Source: Escherichia phage LF82-1
Strand: one strand, 5' to 3'
Length of the DNA: 64,000 bases
Sequence record: PV648359
Shown here one piece after another: positions 3,551-5,113 of this stretch. Position numbers and translations under genes: made by a program. A model generated the notes under the pieces. That model was not told the DNA's origin and searched no databases. It saw only the letters and a list, made by a program, of their open reading frames with translations. Numbering within the stretch: position 1 is the stretch's first letter; every line of letters begins with the position of its first letter.

Positions 3551-4121
3551 AAAAGTTTCGGATTTGTTCCCAATTCAGAGAACGAAGATTATTACGAGAG
3601 TACTGAATTACTTCAATACCGGCTTGTTTAAGAATGTCTGCCCAATTTTCAGGAGATCGGTCATATAATTCTGCATATACAACCTTTTTAATACCTGACT
3701 GTGTAATAGCTTTAGTGCAATCAGGACACGGAGAAAGCGTAGTATATAACGTAGCACCTTCAATAGAATTACCTTTACGAGCTGCAAACAAAATTGCATT
3801 CAGTTCCGCATGGATTTCGTTATTAGCGGACCATGCACTATGAGCAGCCCGATGTTCTTTAGCCAAAACAAAATTATCCACCCGTCCAAATGCTGTAGTG
3901 CCTTCTTTATGCCCAGCAACGATGACCGGGCTTGGTTTATTCTTCAACCAACCGTTTTCGGATGCATGTTCACAACAGTTAACACCACCTGAAGGAGAGC
4001 CATTATAACCTGTAGAAATAATGCGTCCATCTTTTTCAATGACTGCGCCAACTTTCCATGAACAACATTTTGATTCTTGAGAAATCAAATAAGCAATTTG
4101 AAGATATGTGCTAGCTTTCAT
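3540..4121 (-). CDS. cd: dCMP deaminase
   Basis: 193 aa; zinc-binding motifs HAELNAI and PCPDC; T4 Cd length. Confidence 0.9.
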   Translation of the reverse strand: MKASTYLQIAYLISQESKCCSWKVGAVIEKDGRIISTGYNGSPSGGVNCCEHASENGWLKNKPSPVIVAGHKEGTTAFGRVDNFVLAKEHRAAHSAWSANNEIHAELNAILFAARKGNSIEGATLYTTLSPCPDCTKAITQSGIKKVVYAELYDRSPENWADILKQAGIEVIQYSRNNLRSLNWEQIRNFCGE

Positions 4122-5113
4122 TATTGAACCTTATTAATATAAGTTAACAGCTCTTTAGTTTGTTCCCAACTGATGCACGCATCGGTAACGGAAACGCCAT
4201 AGGACATATTATCAGAAATTTTTTGATTTCCTTCATGTAGGAACGATTCTATCATAATTCCTTTGACCAAATCATTAGCTGCTAAATTTTTACCAATACC
4301 AATTTGATTGCTATAATGCCCATCAGCGTTTGCATGGCTACAGTCAACCATTACATAATGATTCAGACCTACTGCCCTTGCTTTGTTAGAAGCTTCTTGA
4401 ATATCAGAAGAATGATAGTTCGGGCCGTTGGTCCCGCCACGCAATACGATATGCGTATTCTGATTACCTTCAGCTTCAACAATGCCTACAGTACCATCGA
4501 CGTCCATACCCATATACCGATGAGGCCAGGCGGCACTATACATCGCGTCTGTAGCTACTTTAATAGAACCATTGGTTGCGTTCTTGAAGCCTACGCACAT
4601 CGGTAGACCTGAAGCAATTTCACGATGTGTCTGACTTTCAGTCGTACGGGCGCCAATAGCAACCCATGAGAAAATACCAGAAAGATACTTAATCGTGAAT
4701 GGGTCTAATACTTCAGTTGCTAATGGAAGTCCCATACGTAGAAGTTTACGACACAATGTTCGTGCAACTATAAGACCGTGGTTCATATCAAAACTTCCGT
4801 CAAGATATGGATCATTTACAAGACCTTTCCAACCTACGGTAGTTCGAGGCTTTTCAAAATAAACGCGCATCACTAACAGAACATTAGGAAGACGAGTTTG
4901 AAGTTCAGCCAGACGTTTGCCGTATTCAACCGCGGCAATAGGGTCATGAATTGAACAAGGACCTACAACAATAAGTTTGCGTGGGTCTTCACCGTTCATA
5001 ATCGAATTAACTTGTTCGCGATGAGAAGCCACTTGTGATGCGTAAGCTTCCGACAAAGGAATAATCTCAGCCAGTTCTTTTGGAGAAATAAGTTTTCCGA
5101 CGACAGGTAACAT
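4121..5113 (-). CDS. 3-deoxy-D-arabino-heptulosonate-7-phosphate (DAHP) synthase, class I (AroG/F/H-like)
   Basis: 330 aa; motifs VVGPCSIHDP, MRVYFEKPRTTVGWKGL, IGARTTESQTHRE, GFKNATNGSIKVA match recalled E. coli AroG. Confidence 0.85.
   Translation of the reverse strand: MLPVVGKLISPKELAEIIPLSEAYASQVASHREQVNSIMNGEDPRKLIVVGPCSIHDPIAAVEYGKRLAELQTRLPNVLLVMRVYFEKPRTTVGWKGLVNDPYLDGSFDMNHGLIVARTLCRKLLRMGLPLATEVLDPFTIKYLSGIFSWVAIGARTTESQTHREIASGLPMCVGFKNATNGSIKVATDAMYSAAWPHRYMGMDVDGTVGIVEAEGNQNTHIVLRGGTNGPNYHSSDIQEASNKARAVGLNHYVMVDCSHANADGHYSNQIGIGKNLAANDLVKGIMIESFLHEGNQKISDNMSYGVSVTDACISWEQTKELLTYINKVQ

Follow-up and report, generated by a model that had tools for sequence, protein, structure and literature searches.

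The window, i.e., the whole stretch of 64,000 nucleotides of Escherichia phage LF82-1 (record PV648359) that was analysed, harbors on its minus strand a gene encoding a DAHP synthase (DAHPS), the entry enzyme of the shikimate pathway. The gene and the features surrounding it are the following.

4121..5113, minus strand: DAHP synthase gene, type I-alpha, 330 aa (ORF listing, Pfam/NCBIfam, PHROG 5045, PDB matches and AF2 model)
3540..4121, minus strand: cd, dCMP deaminase, directly downstream of DAHPS (PF00383, E 3.5e-26)
5234..5470, minus strand: cd.2, 78 aa, the resident upstream gene (PHROG 1504, E 1e-37; annotated in Shf125875, PhAPEC2 and T4)
5119..5123, minus strand: Shine-Dalgarno sequence AAGGA, read from the sequence, 5 nt 5' of the DAHPS ATG and overlapping the stop of the cd.2' remnant
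5499..5527, minus strand: probable early promoter, GTTTAC -17- TGATACTAT, between cd.3 and cd.2 (consensus scan)

In the ORF listing of the window, positions 4121..5113 of the minus strand are occupied by a single 330-aa ORF, whose stop codon TAA lies at 4123-4121; since its ATG is the first possible start past the upstream in-frame stop, the N-terminus of the protein cannot be longer. The first-pass annotation had described this ORF, without stating its strand, as carrying four DAHPS motifs, and all four (VVGPCSIHDP, MRVYFEKPRTTVGWKGL, IGARTTESQTHRE and GFKNATNGSIKVA) are found in the translation. Its proposed assignment to the class-I DAHP synthases is borne out by the profile searches: the ORF matched Pfam PF00793 with E 5.2e-75 and 252 bits (cutoff 25.5) over profile positions 8-269 of 270, NCBIfam TIGR00034 (aroFGH) with 427.7 bits (cutoff 173.2), PRK12755 with 455 bits (cutoff 343) and PHROG 5045 with E 3.2e-182 over positions 8-337 of 341. 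The isozyme-specific NCBIfam equivalog cutoffs of AroG (NF006723, 363 vs 568 bits) and AroH (NF009396, 386 vs 463 bits) were not reached, and the PDB sequence search retrieved the E. coli AroF structure 6AGM with E 5e-105. The AlphaFold (AF2) model of the protein (pLDDT 92.7, pTM 0.92) is a (beta/alpha)8 barrel that Foldseek matched to 4HSO, 1KFL and 5CKS (TM 0.95, rmsd 1.6 A). The beta6a/beta6b hairpin of the type I-alpha enzymes is kept as well, being gap-free against AroF, AroG and AroH and modelled as strands 198-203 and 209-214. The ORF is a type I-alpha (AroF/G/H-type) DAHP synthase of family I.

Its active site is intact. The residues binding PEP and E4P (R83, K88-P89-R90-T91, E134, G154-A155-R156, K177 and R225) are conserved, and in the alignment of the window protein with nine other phage copies and AroF, AroG and AroH the active-site residues are invariant. 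The Cys-His-Glu-Asp identity of the AroG metal ligands is established by AroG crystallography. The metal ligands of the phage enzyme, C53, H260, E289 and D311 (C61, H268, E302 and D326 in AroG; PMC9529685), are invariant in 13/13 aligned sequences, so that none of the catalytic residues, whose possible loss the first-pass annotation had named as an argument against its assignment, is missing. A KDO8P-synthase-like or other aldolase specificity was discarded, since the KPRT motif, the criterion that separates DAHPS from KDO8P synthase, and the E4P-phosphate ligands are intact. The product is predicted to be catalytically competent, converting PEP and erythrose-4-phosphate into DAHP.

Upstream of the DAHPS gene lie cd.2, cd.3, ORF227, cd.4 and pseT (6208..7107, with PNKP domains), and downstream of it lies cd, whose ATG shares base 4121 with the DAHPS stop codon. 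The location between cd and pseT and the translational coupling to cd that had been claimed before agree with this arrangement, the 1-nt overlap of stop and start suggesting that cd is translationally coupled to DAHPS. The gene was likewise correctly said to be missing from the T4 map: in T4 the same cd.2-cd slot, within the same early transcription unit, is filled by cd.1 (112 aa), an unrelated gene of unassigned function and without homology to DAHPS. No promoter-like element lies closer upstream of DAHPS than that at 5499..5527, which aligns with the intergenic region of T4 annotated as early promoter Pe133295; by homology to the T4 annotation, it is a probable early promoter. Scanning of the minus strand between this element and DAHPS revealed no terminator-like site, and neither a MotA box nor a late TATAAATA nor a sigma-70-like match was present in the 120-nt spacer that precedes the gene, promoter-like matches in the region being at chance level. 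DAHPS would be transcribed early from this T4-type promoter, as part of a cd.2-DAHPS-cd unit.

The 120-nt spacer, confined to the 139 DAHPS-positive Mosigvirus records, is filled by a gene remnant, and a short repeat flanks the insert.

5122..5247, minus strand: cd.2' remnant, an ORF of 41 codons homologous to cd.2-family proteins over their C-terminal half, filling the spacer (5114-5233)
5219..5237, minus strand: left copy of the 19-nt flanking repeat, ATAATGAGAGCTATCTCAT, at the cd.2 stop and the start of the insert
4106..4124, minus strand: right copy of the flanking repeat, ATAATGAAAGCTAGCACAT, at the DAHPS stop and the start of cd

The remnant matches PHROG 1504, i.e., the cd.2 family, over profile positions 41-76 (E 1.6e-5), and its identity is 49% to the C-terminus of cd.2 of Kanagawavirus PEi26 versus 28% to the cd.2 of the window itself. 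The two copies of the repeat match at 16/19 positions, and no other pair of this kind occurs on either strand of the 64-kb window; in the Mosigvirus JK36, which lacks DAHPS, the stop of cd.2 is joined straight to the right-repeat sequence. The remnant and the repeat mark the import of the cassette from another T4-like phage, and this scar, with its flanking microhomology, documents the movement of metabolic cassettes between T4-like genera. A 55-aa ORF (5067..5234) that starts at the TAATG junction, for which no PHROG match was obtained, was discarded as an artefact of the repeat.

The term "host-type", applied to the gene by the first-pass annotation, is appropriate for the enzyme class and not for a recent origin. 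[quoted passage not shown] It is proposed that the phage lineage derived from AroF-like gammaproteobacterial enzymes.

The occurrence of a DAHPS gene in T4-like phages is already known, the gene being annotated and having its own PHROG, and the belief of the first-pass annotation that similar genes are annotated in some T4-like genomes was sound: a full-length, intact ORF is present in 212 phage records (PHROG 5045), in many of which it is annotated as DAHP synthase. Dozens of deposited Mosigvirus genomes contain the identical protein under its correct name, and the region of the window is 100% identical to that of Escherichia phage LF82-2, a Mosigvirus. At least five T4-like genera have DAHPS in the pseT-cd slot, namely Mosigvirus, Kanagawavirus, Marfavirus, Bragavirus and Winklervirus, as does an environmental T4-like contig. 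The DAHPS gene of the Klebsiella phage KLB31 has been discussed as an AMG, as a hypothesis of the genome paper (PMC11845039); the full-text literature search found no experimental study (enzyme assay or infection phenotype) of any phage DAHPS, and the gene is not mentioned in the T4-genomes review or in the HY01 paper. A search of 1.84 billion cluster representatives returned no separate phage representative, the top match being an unrelated 799-aa tandem fusion.

The first-pass annotation had raised the question of whether the allosteric residues are retained or lost. Gln151, Ser180, Pro150 and Asp155 (AroG numbering) are replaced in all the phage copies, and part of the N-terminal arm is deleted. 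Two features of the gene are concerned.

5084..5113, minus strand: shortened N-terminal arm, MLPVVGKLIS, codons 1-10 (alignments; the ORF is not extendable upstream)
4601..4711, minus strand: remodelled regulatory segment, codons 135-171, EVLDPFTIKYLSGIFSW ... ASGLP (signature scan, conservation and Aro4 mapping)

The arm is about 9 residues shorter than in the E. coli enzymes, with no counterpart of AroG residues 2-9 (Asp6/Asp7 among them) or of AroF Asn7/Asn8, and the conserved Pro is preceded by 8-12 aa in 25 phage sequences (10 in the window protein) versus 16-53 aa in 98 bacterial ones. In type I-alpha enzymes, the N-terminal extension and the beta-hairpin make up the Phe site (PMC4735112), and the extension (beta0), a type I-alpha criterion, contributes to the inhibitor site of the partner subunit. 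Neither the alignment nor the AF2 model, which is coil at residues 1-10, disclosed a beta0 extension in the window protein.

Within the remodelled segment, I141, K142, G146 and P171 of the phage protein correspond, respectively, to P150, Q151, D155 and S180 of AroG, and the substitutions P150I, Q151K, D155G and S180P (AroG numbering) are common to all the close phage copies. In 24/24 of these copies the inhibitor-contacting Pro150, Gln151 and Ser180 are replaced by I141, K142 and P171 (an I-K-P signature), and an intermediate sequence, P0022, carries P-K-P and not I-K-P. AroG Q151 and AroF Q152 are known to touch the main chain of the inhibitor (PMC9529685). An unbiased scan revealed 13 positions at which the phage clade has a fixed residue that is rare (<=5%) in the 98 nearest bacterial homologues; seven of the 13 (P150I, Q151K, D155G, L156I, S180P, F209Y and T223A, AroG numbering) concern positions whose conservation in bacteria is 90% or more. 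A place in the inhibitor site or a role in feedback resistance has been published for P150, Q151, D155, S180 and F209, and L156 and T223 adjoin the inhibitor site in sequence, the former beside D155 and the latter within a segment predicted as beta-hairpin. In the wider family, the canonical P-Q-S triad is kept in 75/150 of the cluster representatives examined; being present in just half of them, the triad residues are not universal markers of regulation.

The explanation that we consider probable, on the strength of the sequence, is that the phage provides an early-expressed, feedback-insensitive DAHPS that would keep carbon entering the shikimate pathway during infection. The allosteric apparatus has been rebuilt, the arm with which each subunit closes its partner's inhibitor pocket having been cut back and the inhibitor-contacting residues having been swapped for ones corresponding to known feedback-resistant mutations; because of the short arm and the swapped contacts, neither Tyr nor Phe nor Trp is predicted to switch the enzyme off. 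In the infected cell, with host transcription off, the host AroF, AroG and AroH would still be inhibited by their end products, and the phage enzyme would keep carbon flowing. The surviving host enzymes from AroB to AroC would then carry this carbon to chorismate and on to aromatic amino acids and cofactors such as folate, which would represent the physiological benefit to the phage.

The same deregulated enzyme might have another pay-off, consisting of chorismate-derived cofactors (pABA leading to folate) or of a drain of PEP/E4P, and not of aromatic amino acids, a possibility that we regard as real, although doubtful. T4-type phages have a high folate demand, and folate would serve td, frd and dCMP hydroxymethylase, whose reactions belong to the same nucleotide cluster; moreover, DAHPS would share a transcript with cd, to which it is coupled, and the genes of thymidylate synthase, DHFR and ribonucleotide reductase are located in the same early region. 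However, pab, fol or further shikimate genes were not found in the annotated part of the region, and the linkage to cd is loose outside Mosigvirus: in this genus, DAHPS has the cd.2' remnant and the 120-nt spacer upstream and abuts cd directly, whereas in the other genera 0-2 small unrelated ORFs or homing-endonuclease fragments are located between DAHPS and cd.

The conservation of the remodelled segment deserves a separate consideration. At residues 135-151, pairwise identity is 95% among phage copies versus 69% in bacteria, overall divergence being similar, and V135-V151 shows the largest phage-over-bacteria conservation excess in the whole protein. Among the invariant degenerate codons of the segment, 12/15 differ synonymously across five genera: the segment is under strong purifying selection. 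The exact I-K-P signature was found only in the phage clade (0/98 bacterial neighbours and 0/150 family representatives). A higher conservation in the phages than in the bacteria is unlike the simple loss of a site and could mean a new function; the old pocket might have been rebuilt for a different effector or for a phage or host protein partner, instead of aromatic amino acids. This is unlikely in our opinion: neither a ligand nor a partner suggests itself, the genes beside DAHPS differ from genus to genus, and the region of the segment belongs to the tight-dimer interface (PMC4735112), where re-packing after the loss of the arm could explain the constraint. It is quite unlikely, in particular, that the former Tyr/Phe pocket is a new, strongly constrained regulatory or interaction surface (DPFTIKYLSGIFSW and ASGLP, both invariant across genera) tying the entry of the shikimate pathway to another signal, for which a nucleotide or folate-related metabolite, or else a protein of the phage or of the host, would be candidates; if true, the type I-alpha DAHP synthases would gain a new allosteric class.

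An ordinary regulated isozyme, still feedback-inhibited (most likely by Tyr, given its likeness to AroF) and adding DAHPS copies after host shut-off, is improbable. The closest solved and curated relatives are indeed of the AroF type, the beta-hairpin is intact, and the AroF-type pocket residues P138 (AroF P148), L170, V212 and G202 (AroF G212/Aro4 G226), the last being the Gly that acts as Tyr-type determinant, are retained, which may allow residual or altered ligand binding. Nevertheless, this reading has to face the concurrent replacement of the four allosteric residues and the truncated arm; single changes at several such positions abolish inhibition in AroG, AroF or Aro4, and the Lys of the phage enzyme is exactly that of Aro4 Q166K. 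As for a decaying or selectively neutral passenger, the absence of the gene from T4, RB69, JK36 and mar005P1 indicates that it is dispensable for this type of phage, but the idea is scarcely credible given the intact, full-length ORFs of the 212 records, the catalytic residues invariant in copies from five genera whose identity to the window protein is 56-77%, the synonymous-biased changes and the good Shine-Dalgarno sequence. The slot shared by the five genera and the environmental contig, the phage-like GC and the synonymous differences over invariant residues show a gene maintained by selection and not in decay.

The feedback-insensitive enzyme adds to the first-pass annotation a testable prediction, namely that enterobacterial T4-like phages carry a naturally deregulated DAHPS. 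If confirmed, this would be a clear case in which the control point of an amino-acid/cofactor pathway, and not only of a nucleotide one, is overridden by a phage; it would also help to study what limits the burst size of T4-type phages where aromatics are scarce, and would supply a compact, evolution-tested feedback-resistant enzyme for the engineering of the shikimate pathway.

Among the known systems, the other phages of PHROG 5045 (for example, Kanagawavirus PEi20/PEi26 and KLB31, Klebsiella Marfavirus, Proteus Bragavirus and Serratia Winklervirus) share with the window the same clade, the same slot and the I-K-P signature. The Tyr-sensitive E. coli AroF (6AGL/6AGM), 51% identical over the full length, has the same metal and substrate residues, (beta/alpha)8 barrel and beta6a/6b hairpin, and the Gly at the Tyr/Phe specificity position is common to both enzymes. 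The phage enzyme differs from AroF in the N-terminus, which is 9 residues shorter and devoid of Asn7/Asn8, in the substitutions Q152K, S181P, P151I and D156G, in two small deletions (5 and 3 aa) near the C-terminus, in the low GC of its gene and in its phage-specific position in the tree. Feedback-resistant laboratory enzymes include AroG D146N and AroF P148L, the AroG alleles P150L, S180F, F209A/S and A202T (PMC9529685), AroF Q152I and N8K (PMC11843938), and yeast ARO4 Q166K and K229L (PMC5879953). At the corresponding positions the phage enzyme shows P150I, S180P and Q151K, the last being equivalent to Aro4 Q166K (Aro4 Q166 aligns with phage K142), a residue other than Lys at Aro4 K229 (phage V205), and the loss of the region of AroF Asn8; AroG D146 and AroF P148 are retained, and the D146N and P148L alleles are not mirrored. 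The laboratory alleles are single mutations, whereas the changes of the phage enzyme are combined, fixed and kept across genera, so that phage DAHPS brings together several substitutions that engineers introduce singly into AroG, AroF and Aro4.

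The 330-aa ORF encodes a protein of the DAHP synthase family whose active site is complete. It matches Pfam DAHP_synth_1 (E 5e-75) and the NCBIfam models TIGR00034 aroFGH (428 bits, cutoff 173) and PRK12755 (455 bits, cutoff 343), scoring below both the AroG- and the AroH-specific equivalog cutoffs, and all four motifs quoted in the first-pass annotation were found in the translation. Its identity to the E. coli isozymes (sequences from the MG1655 record) is 47% for AroG, 51% for AroF and 43% for AroH, and the closest solved structure is E. coli AroF 6AGM (E 5e-105, over residues 8-327). 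An AlphaFold2 model built from a 41-sequence alignment (pLDDT 92.7) superimposes, at a TM of 0.95 and an rmsd of 1.6 A, on type I-alpha DAH7PS structures from E. coli and N. meningitidis. Alignment of the window protein with AroF, AroG and AroH of E. coli and with nine further phage copies shows no variation in the metal ligands C53, H260, E289 and D311 (AroG C61, H268, E302 and D326) or in the PEP/E4P-binding residues R83, K88-P-R-T91, E134, G154-A-R156, K177 and R225. Family similarity is strong and no metal ligand is missing, the opposite of what would have refuted the first-pass annotation. The initial observation is confirmed, and its interpretation is supported.

The gene lies, as proposed, between cd (downstream) and pseT (upstream), with cd.2, cd.3 and two small ORFs also upstream on the same strand.

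Features around the DAHP synthase gene (window positions)
6208..7107, minus strand: pseT, with kinase and PNKP phosphatase domains
5499-5527, cd.3-cd.2 intergenic region: candidate early promoter, GTTTAC-17-TGATACTAT, from alignment with the T4 region annotated Pe133295
5 nt upstream of the DAHP synthase ATG, minus strand: Shine-Dalgarno sequence AAGGA, read from the sequence
4121..5113, minus strand: DAHP synthase, a single 330-aa ORF in the ORF listing
4123-4121, minus strand: DAHP synthase stop codon TAA
3540..4121, minus strand: cd, dCMP deaminase (PF00383)

Base 4121 is common to the TAA and the cd ATG, confirming the translational coupling to cd. In the 120-nt spacer upstream of the gene, a MotA box, a late promoter and a sigma-70-like match are all absent. 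Since a Pe133295-like region is present at 5499-5527 and the minus strand from there to the gene holds no terminator-like site, an early transcription unit cd.2 - cd.2' - DAHP synthase - cd is likely, cd.2' being a 41-aa cd.2 remnant in the spacer; middle-mode transcription could come in addition from a site within pseT (6515-6491) that resembles a MotA box. Throughout the window, the MotA-box-plus-(-10) pattern TGCTTNA-N11-13-TANNNT occurs 14 times versus 4.15 expected, a count reached in 0/100 shuffles; these sites, mostly on the minus strand (e.g., 3215-3239, just upstream of gene 31, 6491-6515, 12023-12047 and 23732-23757), are consistent with T4-type middle promoters.

It is known that in type I-alpha enzymes the N-terminal extension of one subunit joins the beta6a/6b hairpin, the loop and helix following beta3 and the start of the segment following beta4 in forming the inhibitor pocket of its partner (PMC4735112; PMC9529685). 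An unbiased scan for residues fixed in the phage clade and shared by no more than 5% of the 98 nearest bacterial homologues yielded 13 positions; for seven of these, conservation in bacteria is 90% or higher (P150I, Q151K, D155G, L156I, S180P, F209Y and T223A, AroG numbering). Five of the seven (P150, Q151, D155, S180 and F209) are published inhibitor-site or feedback-resistance positions, and L156 and T223 adjoin such positions in sequence. Feedback resistance is conferred by P150L, S180F, F209A/S and A202T in AroG, where Gln151 (Gln152 in AroF) contacts the inhibitor main chain (PMC9529685), by Q152I and N8K in AroF (PMC11843938) and by Q166K and K229L in yeast Aro4 (PMC5879953). Aro4 Q166 (sequence verified against PDB 1HFB) aligns with phage K142, so that the phage enzyme carries that very Gln-to-Lys change; Aro4 K229 aligns with V205. 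The conserved Pro is preceded by 8-12 residues in 25 phage sequences versus 16-53 in the 98 bacteria, and equivalents of AroG Asp6/Asp7 and AroF Asn7/Asn8 are absent. The ATG is the first possible start downstream of the upstream in-frame stop; the short N-terminus is therefore real and not due to a mis-called start.

The rebuilt site is also strongly conserved. Within the phage set (18 non-redundant copies) and the bacterial set (98 copies), mean pairwise identity is similar over the whole protein (65% vs. 61%); it differs most in V135-V151 (95% vs. 69%), the largest phage-over-bacteria excess in the protein. In this segment, 16 of 17 residues are invariant across five genera, with synonymous differences in 12 of the 15 degenerate invariant codons, which indicates purifying selection and rejects decay of the site. 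In the wider family, the P-Q-S triad is kept in only 75 of 150 representatives, and short N-termini are also found in some others; departure from the canonical regulatory site is recurrent in nature. Among all the sequences compared, the exact I-K-P combination is confined to the phage clade. An intermediate signature, P-K-P, is seen in one environmental phage copy (P0022), which may represent a transitional form; it has a 12-residue N-terminus, lies downstream of a 394-aa pseT-like gene and comes from a divergent T4-like phage (contigs L010/L011; ENA ERZ27315841, crustacean metagenome).

The gene is probably expressed early, its product being a DAHP synthase of normal catalytic function that would not be switched off by Tyr, Phe or Trp; with host transcription off and the host isozymes under end-product control, the enzyme would keep the shikimate pathway open in infection. 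Independently of the other alternatives, the pay-off might, rather doubtfully, come from folate, from other products of chorismate or from a PEP/E4P drain, and not from aromatic amino acids. No experimental work on any phage DAHP synthase was found in the literature searched. Re-purposing of the regulatory site is unlikely. The constraint on V135-V151 may be read, more novelly, as a new effector or partner site and, mundanely, as a dimer interface re-packed after loss of the N-terminal arm. That the enzyme is an AroF-like, still regulated isozyme seems quite improbable; the AroF-type residues P138, L170 and G202 (Tyr/Phe specificity position) are kept, and retention of the allosteric residues, a point raised in the first-pass annotation, failed at Q151, S180, P150 and D155, all replaced, and in the shortened N-terminal stretch. 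A non-functional passenger, with an intact set of catalytic residues and a site under purifying selection, is hardly credible.

As for the origin of the gene, the term "host-type" holds for the enzyme class and not for its source. A search of 5.8 billion proteins returned top matches (55-98% identity) largely on contigs with phage names or of phage length, including PEi20, Virsaitis27, pzk-kv8, EcS1, vB_SdyM_006 and PSTCR6, while the best bacterial proteins reach only 50-55%. In a neighbour-joining tree of 123 sequences, the phage enzymes form one clade (bootstrap 100/100), sister to gammaproteobacterial AroF-like enzymes. GC content tracks the phage genome (32.5% in PM2, 41.6% in the window, 44.4% in EI) and the GC3 of the window gene (30.5%) is similar to that of its neighbours; a fresh capture is rejected, and the gene is an old resident of T4-like phages. 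A 98%-identical protein labelled "Escherichia coli" by NCBI (P0001, on a 170,875-bp contig, as long as a Mosigvirus genome) is probably phage DNA inside a bacterial assembly. The top-ranked cluster representative (P0121) is a tandem double DAHP synthase of 799 aa. Aeromonas phage HJ05 (79 kb) and "Bacteriophage sp." contigs from the human gut carry distant homologues (35-38% identity), which implies independent acquisitions outside the T4-like group.

The belief that similar genes are annotated in T4-like genomes was borne out by 212 phage records (tblastn; at least 99% identity in 100), named DAHP synthase, aroF, AroG, "putative aldolase" or hypothetical, and by the protein's membership of PHROG 5045 ("auxiliary metabolic gene"), so that databases already list the gene under its correct name. 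Over the surrounding 3.1 kb, the window matches Escherichia phage LF82-2 at 100% identity and many Mosigvirus (RB69-like) genomes at 95-98%. The order pseT ... cd.x ... DAHP synthase ... cd ... 31 ... rIII is common to several genera.

Phages with DAHP synthase in this slot
Mosigvirus
Kanagawavirus (PEi26)
Marfavirus (Klebsiella EI)
Bragavirus (Proteus PM2)
Winklervirus (Serratia X20)
Environmental T4-like contig, with the gene adjoining a pseT-like gene

T4 lacks the gene, as expected, the unrelated cd.1 occupying its position. The Mosigviruses JK36, where the stop of cd.2 joins the start of cd, and mar005P1 also lack it, and RB69 has nothing between cd.2 and cd, as judged from consecutive protein accessions in the Shf125875 annotation. 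In Klebsiella phage EI (L007), SegB-like and MobE-like homing-endonuclease genes or fragments (981-1575 and 3510-4048) bracket the gene and could promote movement of the cassette. The LF82-2 annotation (L012 28655-29296) places a homing endonuclease gene between the ribonucleotide reductase beta and alpha genes, at about 11854-12495 of the window.

The spacer upstream of the gene is found only in the 139 DAHP synthase-positive Mosigvirus records, and holds or adjoins the following features.

Features of the putative import scar (window positions)
5247-5122, minus strand: cd.2', 41-aa ORF that matches the cd.2 family (PHROG 1504, E 1.6e-5) over its C-terminal half
5219-5237 and 4106-4124: flanking 19-nt repeat, 16/19 identical

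The cd.2' product shares 49% identity with cd.2 of PEi26 (Kanagawavirus) vs. only 28% with the window's own cd.2, and its stop lies inside the DAHP synthase Shine-Dalgarno sequence, as in PEi26; it is a truncated second cd.2 copy, nearer to the Kanagawavirus gene than to the resident cd.2. In some records it is listed as a hypothetical protein of 50 aa overlapping the cd.2 end. The repeat is the only such pair in the window. In JK36, which lacks DAHP synthase, cd.2 runs directly into the right copy (4106-4124), the cd start. The simplest history would be the import of a cassette (cd.2 3'-half plus DAHP synthase) from another T4-like phage, with one crossover through the 19-nt microhomology and a second at or within cd. 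The RB69/JK36 arrangement would be restored by a deletion from one repeat to the other. Comparison with PhAPEC2 (L013) gives 99.5% DNA identity for the gene and spacer vs. 96.6% for cd, 92.0% for cd.2, 69.9% for cd.3 and 96.7% for pseT, as would fit a recent exchange of this module between Mosigviruses. The divergence of cd.3 (5529-5804), whose neighbouring genes are 92-99.7% identical, marks a sharp mosaic boundary adjoining the module.

The gene itself is already known and annotated; as far as found, the conserved, feedback-resistant-like remodelling of its regulatory site and the import scar had not previously been described. The places remodelled in the phage enzyme are exactly those where single mutations confer feedback resistance.
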